Of a stretch of 23,087 nt of DNA, positions 3,062-16,162 are shown in pieces. Every line of letters starts with the position of its first letter. Positions within the stretch are counted from its first letter, which is position 1. The DNA is from an uncultured archaeon (GTDB lineage Archaea; Asgardarchaeota; Thorarchaeia; Thorarchaeales; Thorarchaeaceae). The notes below the pieces were generated by a model that was not told the DNA's origin, ran no database searches, and saw nothing but the letters and a program-made list of their open reading frames with translations. The position numbers were made by a program, and so were the translations under genes. Location of the stretch: the NCBI GenBank assembly GCA_964473825.1, contig CAYYQL010000038.1:1-23087 (forward strand). Reading direction: 5' to 3'.

Positions 3062-5302
3062 ATGGCTACGAAGCGAAAGAAAGGGGAAACTGTTCAGATG
3101 ACTCTAGATGCTGCCAATGCGAAGAGTGAGAAGATGCAGAGCAAACTGATGGACTTGTCCGGTGTTGGAGAGAAGACCGTCGAGAGCCTTCTCAAGGCAG
3201 GATACGACTCTCCGGAAAAGATAGCAAAGTCGAGCGTAGGTACTCTGGCCAAAAAAGTAGATGGAGTGGGGAAAGGAACGGCGGAGACAATTATTGCAGC
3301 TGCCAAGAAGATGGTGAAAGCACCGACGACGAAGACCAGCCGAAGGAAGACCACCAAAGGGGTGAAGAAGAAACCTCAATCTGCGATCTCGATGACCAAG
3401 CTTCCAGGTGTGGGCGCGAAGACAAGAGAAAGTCTCATTGCAGCTGGTTATGATTCTGTTGAGAAGATTTCAAGCTCGAAGCCGTCCGAGATTGCGAAGG
3501 GCGTCGAGGGGGTAGGAAAGAGCACCGCGGAGAAAATTGTGAGAGCAGCCAAGAAGATGTCAAAACCTCCGAAGAAGAAGTCAAAACCGAAGAAGAAATC
3601 CAGAACCGAACAACCAACGAAAAGCGATGCTCTTGAAACATCAATGACATCTCTTCCGGGTGTGGGGGCCAAGACGCGGGACAGTCTTATTGCAGCTGGC
3701 TACGACTCCGTGGAGAAGATTTCACGTTCGAAAGCATCAGTGATTGCCAAAAATATTGACGGTGTTGGTACGAAGACAGCTGAAGCCATTGTAAAGGCGG
3801 CAAAAGAGATCTTACCACCGGAAGAGCCGGAAAGCCCTGATATTTCCATGAAGGATCTTCCTGGCGTCGGCCCCAAGACAAGGGACGCTCTAGTTGATGC
3901 AGGGTATTCATCAATAGCGAAGATATCAGAGACAAAGCCAACTGAGATTGCGAAGGCAGTTGACGGTGTTGGAAAAACCACGGCCGGGAAAATTGTTAAA
4001 GCGGCACAGGAGCTAGTGGGATCAGAACAAGAATCTGTGGAAGAGCCCAAGCCCTCTATGAGGCCTGTCAGACCACTCAAGAAGGTTCCCGAACGAGAAA
4101 GGGCTAAACCCGTGAAGAAGAAGTCTGGCCTGCCAGTGCCCGAGACAGTCATACAACTTGAGAAGGAAATGAAGGAGAACTGGGCGGAGGCTCAGAAGAA
4201 GATTGACCAGAGAGAAGTCCAGAAGACAATGAAGGTCTCGGCACTCACTGCCGATGAGACCGAGGAACGGTTGGTCAAGGAAGTTGAGATGATTCTTAAT
4301 GAAATAGTTACCACCGGGCGGCCTGCCTTCGAGATTCCTAGTAGGTCATCGGATAATATCGTATGGGACGAGGTGCGCGACCTGCTACTTCTTGGTATGA
4401 AGAAGATATCTCGCCCCTATCACTCACTCGGTTCTGTTGTTGATGCAACGCGCACGGCACGTCTGATGGAGATTGTCTTCCAACTGCTTCAGTCTAATCT
4501 ACACGCAACAAAGCGAGAAGTATTCTATAGTGATGTCAATCTATTCCGAGACCAGAAGTACAGTGATAGAATCATGGAAGATGTAGCCTCGATGCTTCAG
4601 ACAACCCGTGACAGCATCCACATTGTAGCTTCTGCCAGAGGTTCTGCGATGGGAAGGGTCGTAATACGAGATGGAGGTGACCTGATTGACCTGACAAAGA
4701 TGGGCACTGGTGGATGGGCTATCACCCCGTTTCTTGATCAGGTCGACATCGTCGAGAGCGATGCCGAATTCATCATCATGTCAGAGAAGGACGCTGCTGT
4801 CATGAGGTTAGCTGAGGCAAAATACTGGAACCGACAGCCGTGCATTGTACTGACTGGGAAAGGTTCAGGAGACATCGCTACTCGCGCATTTTTGAAGCGC
4901 CTTGTTCGAGAACTGGAGATTCCGGCCTTTGCTCTGGTAGATTCCGACCCCTACGGGCACTATATCTACTCTGTGTTTCTGCGGGGTTCCAAGAGGCTTT
5001 CATACGAATCGCCATTCATCGCCACACCCGAACTGAAGCTTCTGGGTGTTCTGAGCCGTGATCTTGATGCGTATAACATCCCCAAAGCCGTGCGTATCCC
5101 AATGGAGCCGACGGACATGAAACGTGTCAAGGATATGCTGAAAGAAGATTTTGTTCAGAGCAATAAGGAATGGGTGGAGGACCTCCGGCTGATGCTCAGG
5201 CTCAAAGAGAAGGCAGAGATTCAGGCCTTTGCCAGTCATAGCTTCGAGTTTCTCACAGACGAGTACCTTCCTACCAAGCTGGAAACCGGCGATTGGATCT
5301 AA
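3062..5302 (+). CDS. top6A: DNA topoisomerase VI subunit A (Spo11/Top6A family) with an N-terminal array of four (HhH)2 domains
   Basis: C-terminal ~350 aa contain the catalytic-Tyr motif ATKREVFY, TOPRIM SEKDAA, TGKG, DSDPYG and KAEIQAF. N-terminal ~320 aa hold four LxGVG...AGY...GVG repeats. GAGGAGG SD upstream. Confidence 0.93.
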   Translation: MATKRKKGETVQMTLDAANAKSEKMQSKLMDLSGVGEKTVESLLKAGYDSPEKIAKSSVGTLAKKVDGVGKGTAETIIAAAKKMVKAPTTKTSRRKTTKGVKKKPQSAISMTKLPGVGAKTRESLIAAGYDSVEKISSSKPSEIAKGVEGVGKSTAEKIVRAAKKMSKPPKKKSKPKKKSRTEQPTKSDALETSMTSLPGVGAKTRDSLIAAGYDSVEKISRSKASVIAKNIDGVGTKTAEAIVKAAKEILPPEEPESPDISMKDLPGVGPKTRDALVDAGYSSIAKISETKPTEIAKAVDGVGKTTAGKIVKAAQELVGSEQESVEEPKPSMRPVRPLKKVPERERAKPVKKKSGLPVPETVIQLEKEMKENWAEAQKKIDQREVQKTMKVSALTADETEERLVKEVEMILNEIVTTGRPAFEIPSRSSDNIVWDEVRDLLLLGMKKISRPYHSLGSVVDATRTARLMEIVFQLLQSNLHATKREVFYSDVNLFRDQKYSDRIMEDVASMLQTTRDSIHIVASARGSAMGRVVIRDGGDLIDLTKMGTGGWAITPFLDQVDIVESDAEFIIMSEKDAAVMRLAEAKYWNRQPCIVLTGKGSGDIATRAFLKRLVRELEIPAFALVDSDPYGHYIYSVFLRGSKRLSYESPFIATPELKLLGVLSRDLDAYNIPKAVRIPMEPTDMKRVKDMLKEDFVQSNKEWVEDLRLMLRLKEKAEIQAFASHSFEFLTDEYLPTKLETGDWI
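3146..4015 (+). repeat. Four degenerate ~168-bp (56-aa) intragenic repeats encoding tandem helix-hairpin-helix domains: 3146-3313, 3392-3559, 3644-3811, 3848-4015
   Basis: Consensus L(P/S)GVGxKTxxxLxxAGYxSxxKIxxxxxxxIAKxV(D/E)GVGxxTAxxIVxAAxx seen four times; copies 2 and 3 are also clearly similar at DNA level. Confidence 0.92.
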
Positions 5303-8565: not shown

Positions 8566-8886
8566 ATGTGCTCCAAAATGCCAGCAATGCCAAAGCGCGA
8601 GATGTTCGAACAGATAATACAGAGCATTACGACTAAATTTCCTGATGTATACGCTGCCCTCTTCATTAGTCCTGAAGGCTTCCCAATCAACACGTGGGGA
8701 GTGTCTATGGAGCGCGCTGAAGAAATCTCGGCGCTTCTGAGTTCGCTTATTGGCAAGACTAAGGAGATCATATGCCAGGTAAGCGAAGGTGCTGCAATGC
8801 AGTTCATCCAGATTGCAACTAATATCGGGTCTATCAGGATCGCTCCTCAAGAGGAGTATATCCTTGTGACACTGGCGAAGAACTGA
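8566..8886 (+). CDS. Roadblock/LC7 (MglB-like) domain protein
   Basis: ~100 aa with pattern helix-DVYAALFISPEGFPI-helix(EEISALLSSL)-IQIATNIGSIRIAP-YILVTLAK; alternative ATG starts at 8578 and 8587. Confidence 0.85.
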   Translation: MCSKMPAMPKREMFEQIIQSITTKFPDVYAALFISPEGFPINTWGVSMERAEEISALLSSLIGKTKEIICQVSEGAAMQFIQIATNIGSIRIAPQEEYILVTLAKN

Positions 8887-11656: not shown

Positions 11657-12964
11657 TTGAGTATGGCTAATCTCGTTATCCTCGGTCTCCAATGGGGTGA
11701 TGAAGGAAAAGGGAAGATTGTGGACTATCTGTCCGCAGGATTTGACATCATTGTTAGATTCCAAGGGGGGAATAATGCAGGCCATACTGTCAAGATTGGA
11801 GATAACACATACCGACTCAGGTTGATTCCAACCGGTGCTGTACGGGGAAAGAGAGTTGTCATCGGAAATGGTGTGGTTGTGGACCCGCGCACGTTGGTAG
11901 ATGAGATATCTGACCTCAAGAACGCAGGTATCACTGTTGATCTCCTATTGAGTAACAGGGCGCACATAACCACTCCTTACCATGTCAAGATTGACGAGCT
12001 TCAGGAGATCGAGAAGGGGGAAACCCAGATTGGTACAACGAAGAGAGGCATTGGTCCAACATATTCGAACAAGATAGACAGAGTCGGTCTGAGAGTTGCC
12101 GATTTCTTGACCGAATCCGCGGAGTCAGTTGACAGATTTCGAGAAATGACATCGGCGAAGGTCGCTGCTCTCTTCGGCATCGAGCCGACAGACGAGCTCA
12201 AAAATGAGTATGAGCTGTGCTATACACTTGTGCGATCTCTTGAACCGCATATTGGCGACACCGGTGAGTACCTGAGAGCGGCGATACAGAGAGGCGAACG
12301 TATGCTTTTCGAGGGCGCTCAGGGAGCCATGCTAGACATAGATCACGGAACCTACCCATTTGTGACATCTTCCAACTGCAGCGTTGGGGGTGTTTCAACA
12401 GGAACTGGAGTTCCCGTATCTCAAGTTGGTTCTGTTCTTGGAGTCACGAAGGCATATGTTACGAGGGTGGGAACCGGCCCCTTTCCCACTGAATTACACG
12501 ACAGTGTTGGTAAGACTATCCAAGCACGAGGGAACGAATTCGGTACAGTCACAGGCAGACCAAGGCGGTGCGGCTGGCTTGACTTGGTTGCCCTACGATA
12601 TGCAGTAGCGCTGAATGACGCACGCCATCTTGCAATCACCAAGATAGACGTGCTTTCTGGCCTCTCAAAGCTTAAAGTCTGCACAGGCTACGAATTGAAC
12701 GGTTCCGAGACCTCATCCATTCCTGCACATGCAGACGACTACGAATTAGTAGAACCCATCTATGAAGAAGTGAAAGGGTGGGCTGCTCCCGACGAAGGGG
12801 ACTGGACCAAGGTCTTGGAATGCGGGCCTGATTCTCTGCCAGCCAATCTCCCAGAGTATGTAGAGCTGATCGAGAGATTCACCAAGTCAGAAGTGAAACT
12901 GCTCTCATTTGGACCTAAGCGAGAAGAGACCTTGGTCTTGGATGAGAAATGGTTTCAAGGCTAG
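11657..12964 (+). CDS. purA: Adenylosuccinate synthetase
   Basis: GLQWGDEGKGK, RFQGGNNAGHT, IGTTKRGIGP, FEGAQG, DHGTYPFVTSS, KAYVTRVGTGPFPTE, EFGTVTGRPRRCGWLD; start is TTG 11657 or ATG 11663. Confidence 0.97.
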   Translation: MSMANLVILGLQWGDEGKGKIVDYLSAGFDIIVRFQGGNNAGHTVKIGDNTYRLRLIPTGAVRGKRVVIGNGVVVDPRTLVDEISDLKNAGITVDLLLSNRAHITTPYHVKIDELQEIEKGETQIGTTKRGIGPTYSNKIDRVGLRVADFLTESAESVDRFREMTSAKVAALFGIEPTDELKNEYELCYTLVRSLEPHIGDTGEYLRAAIQRGERMLFEGAQGAMLDIDHGTYPFVTSSNCSVGGVSTGTGVPVSQVGSVLGVTKAYVTRVGTGPFPTELHDSVGKTIQARGNEFGTVTGRPRRCGWLDLVALRYAVALNDARHLAITKIDVLSGLSKLKVCTGYELNGSETSSIPAHADDYELVEPIYEEVKGWAAPDEGDWTKVLECGPDSLPANLPEYVELIERFTKSEVKLLSFGPKREETLVLDEKWFQG

Positions 12965-13506
12965 ATGTGTTTGAACTCAATTATCACTATTGACAGGATG
13001 ACTATCAGTACTATCAGAAGCAGGATTGGAGGCATCCAGTTGAGAAAGAGCTCGAAGTATCCAACAATCGTTGATGGGTCAAGTGCGATAACAACGAGGT
13101 GGGCATAGATCAAAAGGAACCCATAGACTGCAAATATGGGGTAGAATACTGGACCGCCGCTTATGACTAGAAGCAGAACAATGAGTGCTAGACGACTCTT
13201 GGTTGGGTCAAGAAGTGAGACCGGTATTGTTTCATCATCATCGAACTGGAAGTAGTAGCTCGGAAGAAATGTTGGTTTCCGAACCCGTAGTAGTTCGAGT
13301 ATCTGTACTCCTAGTTGCACTGATAGGAGTACTAAAGTATGCACAAGCATATAGCCCAAGATCAAAGCATTGAGTATCGGCAAGTCCTCTTGGAAGATTT
13401 GAAAGCTGTCAACAACACTAACAAGAACGCAGAAGTTGATGGCAAAGAGGGCCAAATGTCCGAACACACCTCTGATTAACTGGGCCCTTTCTGGCATTGC
13501 AATCAA
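12961..13506 (-). CDS. Hypothetical multi-pass membrane protein (about 4-5 TM)
   Basis: 181 aa with several long hydrophobic segments and one polar loop (RKPTFLPSYYFQFDDDETIP); 17 bp downstream of the Rab-like gene on the same strand; ATG 13497 is an alternative start. Confidence 0.75.
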   Translation of the reverse strand: MIAMPERAQLIRGVFGHLALFAINFCVLVSVVDSFQIFQEDLPILNALILGYMLVHTLVLLSVQLGVQILELLRVRKPTFLPSYYFQFDDDETIPVSLLDPTKSRLALIVLLLVISGGPVFYPIFAVYGFLLIYAHLVVIALDPSTIVGYFELFLNWMPPILLLIVLIVILSIVIIEFKHI

Positions 13507-13523: not shown

Positions 13524-14126
13524 CTAGGTCATTTTGGATGGTTTTCCGGGTGTTATCGATCCTGTCTGCTTCTTCCCGGATTGACGTGCCTGTTTCTGTT
13601 TTTCAATCGCCCTCTGTACAAGGTCTGTAAACAAGTCGTTAACGTTCTCACCAGTCTTGGCTGATGTTTCATAGTGCATGACATCCAGCCATTTCTTGAC
13701 CATCTCTCCGGCCTCAGGAGGCACAAGTCTATCCGGACGGTCTATCTTGTTTGCGACAACCGTTACAACGGCATTAGGGCAGACTGCAATAAACTTGGTG
13801 AACCACTCACCTATGTCCAGGAAGGTCTGAGGACGCGTTACGTCGTATACGATTATCGCCATCGATGCGCCGGCCATGTATCGTCTTCTGAGCTCATTAT
13901 AGGTGGGCTGGCCAGCGAGGTCCCAGAGCACAACACGAGCTGTGATATCGCCGCCATCGGGCATTTCCAGATTCACTGTCTTTAGCGCGAATGTCGTACC
14001 AATGGTCATGATGTAGCGTTCGCTGAAGCTGTCCTCCGTGTATCGCTTGATACAGCTTGTCTTGCCAACAGCCCCATCTCCTAGGGCAACAAGCTTGAAC
14101 ATGTGCGATATCTCTTTTGTGGACAT
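13524..14126 (-). CDS. Ras-superfamily (Rab-like) small GTPase, paralogue 1
   Basis: G1 GDGAVGKT, G2 TIGTTF, G3 WDLAGQ, IVYDVT, G4 NKID, G5 ETSAK; GAGGT SD; basic tail with no C-terminal Cys. Confidence 0.93.
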   Translation of the reverse strand: MSTKEISHMFKLVALGDGAVGKTSCIKRYTEDSFSERYIMTIGTTFALKTVNLEMPDGGDITARVVLWDLAGQPTYNELRRRYMAGASMAIIVYDVTRPQTFLDIGEWFTKFIAVCPNAVVTVVANKIDRPDRLVPPEAGEMVKKWLDVMHYETSAKTGENVNDLFTDLVQRAIEKQKQARQSGKKQTGSITPGKPSKMT

Positions 14127-14371
14127 CTTGATAACGACCTCTGGTACACTGCCTCGAAAGAAACCATCTGTCCATTTAATGATTCTGGGAATGTCCTCCC
14201 ATCAATGTTTCAAGGTGAATACTGTCTATGTTCACCGGCACACCTCTAAGGAAGTGCTCCAAGAGCGTCCGGTTCGGATGTCACCTTCTTGAAGCACGCA
14301 ATAGACACCCTCAAAGCTTTTTTCTACTAGGTGTGTATGTCTGATATGACGATTATAGCAGGTGAAGTCCT

Positions 14372-15118
14372 ATGGCAGAGCAGTTTCTGAACAAACTGAA
14401 TGAGATCGAGAAGAGCATAGACTCTCTTGGTGATACCCTGAAACGCATGATTACGATTCTCTCGACACTCAACGAGATCAAGTCGGAGGTTCGGGTCTCG
14501 AAGGAGGAAATCATCAATCGGATGCAGCAGATGTCGTCTCAGCCTGCAGATACCACCGCCGGAGAAGCGACTCAGAAGTTGACTGCTGAAGTTCAGTCTG
14601 TGAAAGAGGAGCTGATTTCTGCTATCTCTGCAATGGGGGCTTCACAGTCGGGCGTATCACGGGACGAAGTAAACGAGATAGTCAAGTCCGAGATTGATGA
14701 GTTGGGCAAGTTCATCATCGAAAGCATCGAAGACATGAAAGAAGACTTGATTGTGGCACTGAAGTCAGCTCCTACGGCGGTTGCAGCACCACGAGTAGCA
14801 GAAGTTCAGGGAGAAACAACTCCCGTGGCCTCTGACGCGACTCTTGCTCCTGACCGTGCAATGAAGATTGCTGATCAGCTCCAGGTGATCTTGGATTCGC
14901 TCAAGATGGGATGTGTCGCGGGGGACGTTCTGGAGACCATGAATGAGGCCAAGTCCAACATCATGAGTATCGTACCGAGCGACCCAATCATGGTGAAAAT
15001 CGACAAGTGGGCTGGTGTTGTAAAGGCATATTCAAAGAGGCACGAGCTGCAGGCACGTGACATCCTGAAATTGAAAAAGGACTTGCGTGAAGAGATTTCG
15101 AAGTATAGACCTGCCTAG
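14372..15118 (+). CDS. Coiled-coil protein with a C-terminal Vps28-CTD-like four-helix bundle (tentative)
   Basis: AGGTGA SD; helical N-terminal 130 aa, Ala/Pro/Thr linker, and a C-terminal 85 aa with LDSLKMxxxAxDxL...KIxxW...S...L...IxxLxxDL resembling the Vps28 CTD as I recall it. The CDS is secure; the domain call is by eye. Confidence 0.6.
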   Translation: MAEQFLNKLNEIEKSIDSLGDTLKRMITILSTLNEIKSEVRVSKEEIINRMQQMSSQPADTTAGEATQKLTAEVQSVKEELISAISAMGASQSGVSRDEVNEIVKSEIDELGKFIIESIEDMKEDLIVALKSAPTAVAAPRVAEVQGETTPVASDATLAPDRAMKIADQLQVILDSLKMGCVAGDVLETMNEAKSNIMSIVPSDPIMVKIDKWAGVVKAYSKRHELQARDILKLKKDLREEISKYRPA

Positions 15119-15519
15119 TCTTCAGAGGCTCCCCCTGCAATCATCTTCATAGTTGCAAGTACACGGATCAAGTCTGTTGTAGTGACCATTCCTATCGTCT
15201 GATTACCATCTACAACAGGGATGTGTTTCTTCCCTGTTCTATCCATAAGGGCGATGGCCTGCCAGAGGTCTGCGCTGGGGGATATGCTGACTACTTCAGT
15301 TGTCATGATGTCACCCAGTCTGAGCCCCTCGTAGGCTTCCGGAGAGAGTAGTTGTGCAGAGATGAGATCTCTCTGGGTCACAATGCCCACCATGGTATCT
15401 CCCTTGGTGATAACGAGACTGCCGATGTCTTCAGCAGCCATGAGCTTGGCAGCATCCGACACATGCATCGATATATCTGAAGTCACCAGAATTGATGTCA
15501 TGAACTCTCTCACTTGCAT
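15115..15519 (-). CDS. Stand-alone CBS-pair (Bateman) domain protein
   Basis: VREFMT...AAKLM...IGSLVI...VGIVTQRDL and LGDIMT...AIALM...HIPVVD...IGMVTTTDL; GGAG SD. Confidence 0.92.
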   Translation of the reverse strand: MQVREFMTSILVTSDISMHVSDAAKLMAAEDIGSLVITKGDTMVGIVTQRDLISAQLLSPEAYEGLRLGDIMTTEVVSISPSADLWQAIALMDRTGKKHIPVVDGNQTIGMVTTTDLIRVLATMKMIAGGASED

Positions 15520-15553: not shown

Positions 15554-16162
15554 CTACATCTCAGTATCACGTTGCTCTTCTAACTTCTTCTCCAGAATCA
15601 AAGTGCCTATCGCTTGAAACACATCTGCCACGGCCGTTCCAGTCTTAGCTGATGTTTCGTAATAGGGTGCTTGGAACCAGTTTCTTAGCATGTGTCCTGG
15701 TTCAATTGGTACCATCCTCTCATCCTTAAGATCTATCTTGTTGGCTGCCAATACTACTTCTGCATCTGGACAAGTCTCTCTGAATGACTCAAACCAGTTG
15801 TTCATGGCCATGAATGTTTCAGGCCTGGTGACATCATAGACAATAATCGCGCCTGCGGCTCCCTTCATGAACTGTCTTCGGAGTTCTCTGTATGTTTCTT
15901 GCCCTGCCATGTCCCAGATTACAAGACGCACATTTCTGGTTTCTCCATCTTCTGATGTGACGGATACATCTCTGCTGGCAAAGGTTGTGCCTATGGTCTG
16001 TTTATACTCTTCATCGAAGACATTCTCAGTGAAACGTCTTAAGACGGAGGTCTTGCCGACCCTTGCATCACCTAGAAGTACAACTCGGAACTTGAATCCA
16101 TCGAAACTTCCACCATCCTCAGTGGGGCTTCTGCTGGTAGAGCTGGAATTCCCTGATGTCAT
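15554..16162 (-). CDS. Ras-superfamily (Rab-like) small GTPase, paralogue 2
   Basis: G1 GDARVGKT, G2 TIGTTF, G3 WDMAGQ, IVYDVT, G4 NKID, G5 ETSAK; GAGGTG SD; Ser-rich N-terminal extension; no prenylation Cys. Confidence 0.93.
   Translation of the reverse strand: MTSGNSSSTSRSPTEDGGSFDGFKFRVVLLGDARVGKTSVLRRFTENVFDEEYKQTIGTTFASRDVSVTSEDGETRNVRLVIWDMAGQETYRELRRQFMKGAAGAIIVYDVTRPETFMAMNNWFESFRETCPDAEVVLAANKIDLKDERMVPIEPGHMLRNWFQAPYYETSAKTGTAVADVFQAIGTLILEKKLEEQRDTEM

Follow-up and report, generated by a model that had tools for sequence, protein, structure and literature searches.

The 23,087-nucleotide stretch of an uncultured Thorarchaeaceae archaeon analysed here (the window) encodes a 248-residue coiled-coil protein, P0001, back-to-back with a Rab-like GTPase (GTPase 1). 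The tail of P0001 resembles Vps28-C, the C-terminal domain of Vps28, a subunit of ESCRT-I in the ESCRT system (endosomal sorting complex required for transport). The locus raises the question of whether this resemblance reflects common descent, and whether the protein serves the GTPase, the ESCRT system or both. The original prediction, made from the sequence letters, proposed a GTPase-directed ESCRT recruitment module. Our analysis indicates that homology of the tail to Vps28-C is well supported, that P0001 is not Vps28 itself, and that comparative genomics (gene linkage together with domain fusions) supports a GTPase-linked role. The reading we favour, with a probability of about one half, is a Thorarchaeia-wide adaptor in which a coiled-coil helix and a linker carry a bundle of the GTPase-associated Vps28-C branch, and which works with GTPase 1 and a four-transmembrane (4-TM) protein encoded beside it. 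Asgard archaea offer the best view of how eukaryotic membrane trafficking was assembled, and Thorarchaeota have an ESCRT-II/III/Vps4 core without a recognised cargo-recognition front end (ubiquitin, Vps23 or full Vps28). With its universal occurrence in the order, its Vps28-C-like tail and its link to a Rab-like GTPase, P0001 is a concrete candidate for the missing ESCRT input.

Architecture of P0001 and the kinship of its tail

P0001 is composed of three parts that recur in an alignment of 40 homologues: an N-terminal helix, a variable middle and a conserved tail. The helix spans residues 2–55 of the AlphaFold2 (AF2) model, with a predicted local distance difference test score (pLDDT) of 81–86 over residues 1–40, and alignment columns L9, L19, L23, R25, M26, T28 and I29 are invariant. 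Residues 46–156 differ in length and sequence among homologues and align poorly, and the linker at residues 133–157 is disordered in the model (pLDDT <50). The tail, comprising the C-terminal 92 residues, has a mean column identity of 78%. The complete model therefore runs from long helices through a disordered linker to a compact four-helix bundle, which reaches a pLDDT of 92.1 and a predicted TM-score (pTM) of 0.83 when modelled alone. The database search returned 339 homologues; those with names are nearly all Thorarchaeota entries annotated ‘hypothetical protein’, and the only exception to Thorarchaeota is one labelled Lokiarchaeota. The region originally singled out, 14849–15118, corresponds to residues 160–248 and the stop codon. 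The open reading frame (ORF) and the tail string quoted from it exist as described, apart from a trivial offset: the string starts at A163, not at residue 160.

The VPS28 family (PF03997) is the sole Pfam match of the tail. It covers profile positions 104–182 of 188 at 13.1 bits (E 0.084), so the profile check proposed with the original prediction returns the right register and a score under the gathering cut-off of 24.5 bits. Among the 40 family members PF03997 is the most frequent Pfam family, matching 6 of them over positions 107–182 with a best E of 0.0047. A PF03997 scan of P0001's own genome gave no match above the cut-off; one match of 11.7 bits lies within a 630-residue ORF (L001). When shallow alignments were compared by hhalign (A2 and A1, each against A3), the probabilities (Prob) were 2.4 and 0.9 and the alignments were off register.

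The hhalign signal appeared only once the comparison had been deepened on both sides. The query combined the P0001 family with a Thorarchaeota paralogue (paralogue B) and with tails from Baldrarchaeia, both described below, and the target side was widened to 35 canonical Vps28 sequences of Asgard archaea, collected from genome matches. In this comparison 83 columns align in register onto the Vps28 C-terminal domain (score 37.2, Prob 78.5, P 1.7e-5), with the family's invariant W213 placed on the invariant tryptophan of helix 3 in Asgard Vps28. Reversed profiles score 14–15, the best of 40 column-shuffled queries scores 18.1, and unrelated alignments used as negative controls give P 0.045–0.18. 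The same register is found separately for the P0001 family itself (paralogue A; P 8.5e-4), paralogue B (P 6.4e-6) and the Baldrarchaeia tails (P 2.6e-4). The motif register drawn by eye in the original prediction (D-x-LK, K-I-x2-W, L-x4-I-x2-L) is reproduced by profile alignment with clean controls.

The strongest result is transitive. Profile A4, built only from the Thorarchaeota A and B tails and the Baldrarchaeia tails, was scanned over 151 Asgard genomes. It re-finds Pfam-defined Vps28-C stretches in Loki-type proteins of about 790 residues with E 1e-5 to 1e-7 per genome, where PF03997 aligns over positions 87–182. Three of these stretches exceed the PF03997 cut-off (G040:C36, 77937–78170; G129:C121; and G147:C1). 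Several proteins of about 200–230 residues from other Asgard families are matched by both A4 and the Asgard Vps28 profile, and the relatives outside the Thorarchaeota family all lie in other Asgard families. An A4 search for longer homologues returned only the Thorarchaeota family among its best 120 matches and zero new fusions. This HMMER-level transitive evidence is an addition of the present analysis.

The structural comparisons point the same way. In the AF2 model the tail is an up-down four-helix bundle of about 90 residues that is superposable on solved Vps28-C. Foldseek against the Protein Data Bank (PDB) places 2j9w_A, the Xenopus Vps28 C-terminal domain, at rank 1 for the whole model and the tail alike. 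The bundle has TM-scores of 0.70–0.72 to 2j9w, 2j9v and 2g3k, and root-mean-square deviations of 2.9–3.1 Å to 2j9w_B, 2j9v and 2g3k and of 4.4 Å to the rank-1 chain. The Foldseek E-values are weak, with a best of 0.03. The top three VIA-align matches are Vps28-C structures (Z 10.6, 10.3 and 10.3), but designed and unrelated bundles score Z 9.7–10.1, so the fold alone cannot settle homology. A shape search of the ESM Atlas places Vps28-C in three of the first five rows: a 788-residue Asgard PCI/UFM1-ligase-like protein, Vps28 of a eukaryote and a Vps28 fusion from a fungus. In a protein-language search of the same Atlas with the tail, the top score was 0.80 (an Asgard cluster), which is under the useful level. 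The predicted description of the tail as a Vps28-C-like bundle on a coiled-coil stalk agrees with these models.

Relation to Vps28 and to GTPase-fused tails

P0001 is not a Vps28: the N-domain of that protein is absent, the score lies under the Pfam cut-off and the ESCRT genes are far away. Compared by hhalign with the N-domain of the 35 Asgard Vps28 sequences, the N-terminus of the P0001 family shows no relation (Prob 0.4, P 0.13), as the original prediction of a different N-terminus had it. Contig C38 carries the P0001 gene, and the genome's ESCRT cluster, comprising a candidate steadiness-box (SB) protein, a Vps22-like protein (Vps22-SB), Vps25, Vps4 and Snf7, is on C10. Canonical Asgard loci have the order Vps23 (UEV), Vps28, Vps22, and P0001 has no such neighbours. 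PF03997 matches above the cut-off occur in 101 of the 151 Asgard genomes and in 0 of the 26 from P0001's GTDB family. The narrow bundle profile A2 has a complementary distribution, matching all 26 genomes of the family, the single sister-family genome and, elsewhere, only one Baldrarchaeia genome.

The ‘Vps22’ of Thorarchaeota is a chimera. A Vps28 N-domain forms its first ~85 residues (hhalign Prob 98.2, P 6e-14; Pfam agrees) and is followed by the EAP30 winged-helix part, whereas other Asgard lineages encode Vps23, Vps28 and Vps22 as separate neighbouring genes. This agrees with the ‘Vps22 fused to SB’ described by Makarova et al. 2024 (10.1101/2024.02.06.579148). For Thorarchaeota, Hatano et al. 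2022 list SB, Vps22, Vps25, two ESCRT-III proteins and Vps4, without Vps28 or Vps23. The phyletic complementarity between P0001 and canonical Vps28 is striking, but the P0001 tail is probably not a split-off Thorarchaeota Vps28-C, because its kinship with GTPase-fused tails (P 3.7e-8) is closer than that with canonical Vps28-C (P 8.5e-4), and because Baldrarchaeia carry both canonical Vps28 and a fused tail. As another candidate for the ‘real’ Vps28, a 414-residue Thorarchaeota protein with a weak full-length PF03997 match (16.8 bits) was rejected by hhalign (Prob 0.4). It belongs to a coiled-coil family of about 410–425 residues (G000:C37:10048–11280, minus strand; L025–L027) with PF03997 scores of 16–19 bits in five Thorarchaeota genomes, which are probably coiled-coil noise.

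Bundles of the P0001 type occur covalently joined to small GTPases in other Asgard lineages. A 380-residue Baldrarchaeia protein (28 members) consists of an N-domain, an Arf-like GTPase (residues 117–269) and a C-terminal bundle, whose alignment with the P0001-type bundle reaches hhalign Prob 96.4 and P 1.3e-9. Like fusions are present in two further Asgard families, a 374-residue protein matched by A4 with E 3.4e-12 (L098) and a 364-residue protein with E 2.3e-6 (L097). The N-domain of the fusions, about 115 residues, had no match in a Pfam search. A 275-residue GTPase neighbouring the Baldrarchaeia fusion lacks the bundle. Upstream of that fusion (L091:827–5268) is a co-directional row of a helix–turn–helix protein, this tailless N-domain–GTPase and four small proteins, which may be another GTPase module. 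The fusions are independent of synteny and constitute Rosetta-stone-type evidence that this bundle branch works with small GTPases, and their architecture suggests that the bundle is an output module. With these proteins we identify the ArfL-type C-terminal tail, by profile comparison, as a member of the same bundle subfamily in three families, which also adds to what was known.

Thorarchaeota encode two further proteins with the same tail. Paralogue B, a family of about 172–215 residues, has the same kind of N-helix as P0001 and a more Vps28-like tail, and its gene adjoins that of a 112-residue protein with a C-terminal hydrophobic (tail) anchor. With the broader profile, almost every genome of the GTDB family yields matches attributable to paralogue B. 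Paralogue C, a coiled-coil protein ending in the bundle, varies from 332 to 422 residues in relatives; its gene shares a co-directional row with those for a D-aminoacyl-tRNA deacylase and a 425-residue coiled-coil protein.

Gene neighbourhood and conserved linkage

The two Rab-like GTPases reported to flank the target gene were confirmed (Table 1), with 7EZB, ‘Thorarchaeota Rab’, as the best PDB match of each. GTPase 2 is a paralogue of GTPase 1 (51% identity, BLASTP 8e-63), and GTPase 1 is 75–85% identical across the GTDB family. The 4-TM protein has no match in Pfam or NCBIfam and no usable match in an Atlas search. Synteny had been proposed as a check, and the GTPase pairing held up. TM protein, GTPase 1 and divergent target stand together in 19 of 20 other family genomes, and both sister-family loci keep the trio, with a rearranged gene order around it and a target of only 32% identity. 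In the remaining family genome (G131, L086) a 1.3-kb insertion adjoins the target, and GTPase 1 and the TM protein were not detected beside it. GTPase 2 is present in all 20 genomes and the CBS-pair gene in 17. The three genomes in which the CBS gene is missing between the target and GTPase 2 belong to one genus (L073, L076 and L077). Neither the CBS gene nor the second GTPase was found near the two sister-family loci. Retention of the trio in the sister family is more telling than synteny within the family.

Table 1. Coordinates of P0001, its parts, its neighbours and related proteins (window positions unless a locus is named)
Feature	Coordinates	Strand	Description and basis
Target gene P0001	14372..15118	+	248-aa coiled-coil protein with Vps28-C-like tail; ORF translation
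Conserved N-terminal heptad helix, aa 1-45	14372..14506	+	Candidate coiled-coil or partner-docking element
Variable helical stretch with flexible Pro/Ala-rich linker, aa 46-156	14507..14839	+	Alignment, AF2
C-terminal four-helix bundle, aa 157-248	14840..15115	+	Remote homologue of Vps28-C
Divergent intergenic region, GTPase 1/target gene	14127..14371	.	245 bp; sequence inspection
Rab-like GTPase 1 (P0002)	13524..14126	-	Pfam Ras 3e-40; divergent from target; basic tail, no C-terminal Cys
Multi-TM (4-TM) protein (P0003)	12961..13506	-	17 bp downstream of GTPase 1; hydrophobic segments in translation
CBS-pair protein (P0004)	15115..15519	-	Pfam CBS 1.1e-26; convergent with target, 4-bp overlap
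Rab-like GTPase 2 (P0005)	15554..16162	-	Pfam Ras 2e-46; adjoins CBS-pair gene
Vps22-SB chimera	G000:C10, L035:10076-10834	+	Relatives L022-L024
Paralogue B	G000:C29, L046:3997-4515	+	172 aa
Anchor protein beside paralogue B	G000:C29, L046:4636-4974	+	112 aa
Paralogue C	G000:C37, L093:2578-3594	-	338-aa coiled-coil protein ending in bundle
GTPase-bundle fusion, f8	L098:754-1878	+	Fusion proteins of ~364-383 aa
GTPase-bundle fusion, f3	L097:497-1591	+	As above
GTPase-bundle fusion, Baldrarchaeia f15	L048:1205-2356	-	As above

The stretch that separates GTPase 1 from the target is a putative promoter region for the divergent genes. It contains a GGTGA Shine–Dalgarno-like motif 7–8 nt upstream of the P0001 ATG and AT-rich stretches further upstream. 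An Rfam search around the P0001 gene, including this region, gave zero family matches. The GTPase module is preceded, about 5 kb upstream, by a Roadblock/LC7 gene (8566–8886, plus strand; Pfam E 6.6e-9) that is syntenic in other Thorarchaeota (L028 and L030) and whose product is a possible GTPase-regulatory partner. Elsewhere in the window, positions 3062–5302 (plus strand) encode a 746-residue Top6A/Spo11 homologue with an unusually long N-terminal extension, in which four Pfam HHH_5 stretches precede the TP6A_N and Toprim domains. The sequencing runs that contain the target DNA carry the label microbial mat metagenome.

Proposed role and comparison with known systems

P0001 most likely partners GTPase 1 and the 4-TM protein. 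We propose that the membrane-bound, GTP-loaded GTPase would dock the conserved N-helix, and that this docking would replace the covalent GTPase–bundle link of other Asgard lineages. The bundle, as output module, would then recruit a partner further downstream. On the model of Vps28-C, through which Vps28 binds ESCRT-II, this partner would belong to ESCRT-II/III (the Vps22-SB fusion, Vps25 or ESCRT-III). The architecture, conservation, homology, gene linkage and fusions are observed, whereas GTPase binding by P0001 and the nature of the recruited partner are inferred. For ESCRT recruitment the evidence is the homology of the domain. Of the original idea of a GTPase-directed ESCRT recruitment module, the GTPase link stands on linkage and on fusions in three families, and the ESCRT link does not extend beyond domain homology; P0001 has no ESCRT neighbours.

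Several observations weigh against the adaptor reading. The window holds no ESCRT or ubiquitin genes, as the original prediction had observed, and inspection of the context of the Baldrarchaeia fusion likewise revealed no ESCRT genes. In Thorarchaeota a Vps28 N-domain takes the place of the Vps22 N-terminus, and the site on which Vps28-C usually docks may therefore be absent. The fused GTPases are Arf-like, whereas the neighbour of P0001 is Rab-like and 27–33% identical to them. Paralogues B and C carry the bundle, yet neither adjoins a GTPase gene. The wider neighbourhood is mostly syntenic in the family and includes the housekeeping genes for PheRS, AdSS and RadA; within-family linkage is therefore weak evidence when taken alone. 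Single-sequence and narrow-profile HMMER searches with the P0001 family reached no Vps28 in the PDB, returning apolipoprotein and coiled-coil noise instead, and the narrow search against 1.84 billion representative proteins reached no Vps28, canonical or eukaryotic.

These last null results, together with the shallow hhalign comparison, the modest Foldseek E-values and the high Z of unrelated bundles, are what could be expected if the resemblance to Vps28-C were convergent and the tail a generic up-down bundle in a lineage-specific coiled-coil protein. We consider this explanation very improbable and already disfavoured: independent methods each rank Vps28-C first, paralogue A, paralogue B and the Baldrarchaeia tails each keep the hhalign register on their own, and the family profile re-finds Vps28-C as defined by Pfam. 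If homology is accepted, the protein might still act as an ESCRT accessory adaptor independent of GTPases, one of several coiled-coil proteins with Vps28-C (such as paralogues B and C) that would dock onto ESCRT-II/III, and might replace the missing C-half of Vps28, with the GTPase neighbourhood as inherited synteny. The absence of canonical Vps28 from all 26 family genomes that have the bundle, the Vps28 N-domain on Vps22 that leaves the C-half ‘missing’, the Hatano et al. 2022 inventory and the common occurrence of coiled-coil proteins with Vps28-C but no GTPase neighbours all make this reading possible, if less probable than the GTPase-linked adaptor. It is rendered doubtful by the closer kinship of the bundle to the GTPase-fused tails, by the co-occurrence of canonical Vps28 and a fused tail in Baldrarchaeia, which marks the subfamily as a paralogue, by the location of P0001 and the ESCRT cluster on different contigs, and by the GTPase 1/TM pairing, which survives rearrangement in the sister family.

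A third explanation dispenses with ESCRT and makes P0001 a regulator of GTPase 1, acting as an exchange factor for guanine nucleotides (GEF), a GTPase-activating protein (GAP) or in the manner of a GDP dissociation inhibitor (GDI), either through its coil, as in Sec2/Rabin8, or through the bundle. The conserved divergent pairing would fit, as would an N-helix conserved unusually well for a plain coiled coil. The strongest PDB matches of GTPase 1 after 7EZB include Sec4, and the GEF of Sec4, Sec2, is a coiled coil. We regard this as improbable: Pfam, NCBIfam and PDB searches revealed no likeness to known GEF or GAP families, and in the fusions the bundle occupies the place of GTPase tails or output domains. 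The adaptor reading can also be extended. Thorarchaeota, which lack ubiquitin, Vps23 and canonical Vps28, might feed ESCRT-II/III through small GTPases: a membrane-anchored Rab-like GTPase would recruit P0001, whose bundle would engage ESCRT-II/III, and the fusions would be single-chain versions of this pre-eukaryotic route; we think this extension unlikely. Binding of the tail to Vps22-SB and of the coil to the GTPase would mean that GTPase switches were already coupled to ESCRT before eukaryotes; should neither occur, P0001 would be a further case of Asgard domain shuffling.

The original prediction claimed too much novelty. Between them, Liu et al. 2021 (10.1101/2020.10.19.343400) and Makarova et al. 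2024 have described Asgard multidomain proteins outside ESCRT-I that re-use Vps28-C, separately encoded Vps28-C genes, and a suggested tie of such proteins to the regulation of small GTPases by way of longin domains. Besides the points marked above, the present analysis adds the phyletic pattern across the 151 genomes and the order-level conservation of the GTPase/TM/adaptor trio. P0001 resembles these Asgard accessory proteins (the ~790-residue PCI/UFM1-ligase-like proteins and the separate Vps28-C genes) in its C-terminal bundle, its non-ESCRT-I architecture, its restriction to Asgard archaea and the A4 cross-matches. It differs in having a short conserved coiled coil, in being universal in one order and annotated as a ‘hypothetical protein’, and in belonging to a sub-branch with GTPase-fused tails.

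Vps28 (PF03997; 2J9W, 2J9V and 2G3K) shares with P0001 the C-terminal four-helix bundle of about 90 residues, a flexible linker, a helical N-terminal part and the helix-3 tryptophan in register. P0001 differs from it in lacking the N-domain (the SB), in scoring 13 against 24.5 bits, and in not being encoded beside Vps23 or Vps22. Eukaryotic coiled-coil Rab effectors and tethers offer a looser parallel. P0001 recalls them as a coiled-coil protein encoded with a Rab-like GTPase, and docking through the coil with a terminal output domain is plausible by analogy; the likeness is one of function only. A further counterpart is found in the Asgard Arf-like GTPases with a C-terminal tail, which belongs to the same bundle subfamily as that of P0001; there Arf-like GTPase and bundle form a single chain, whereas P0001 is encoded on its own next to a Rab-like GTPase gene.

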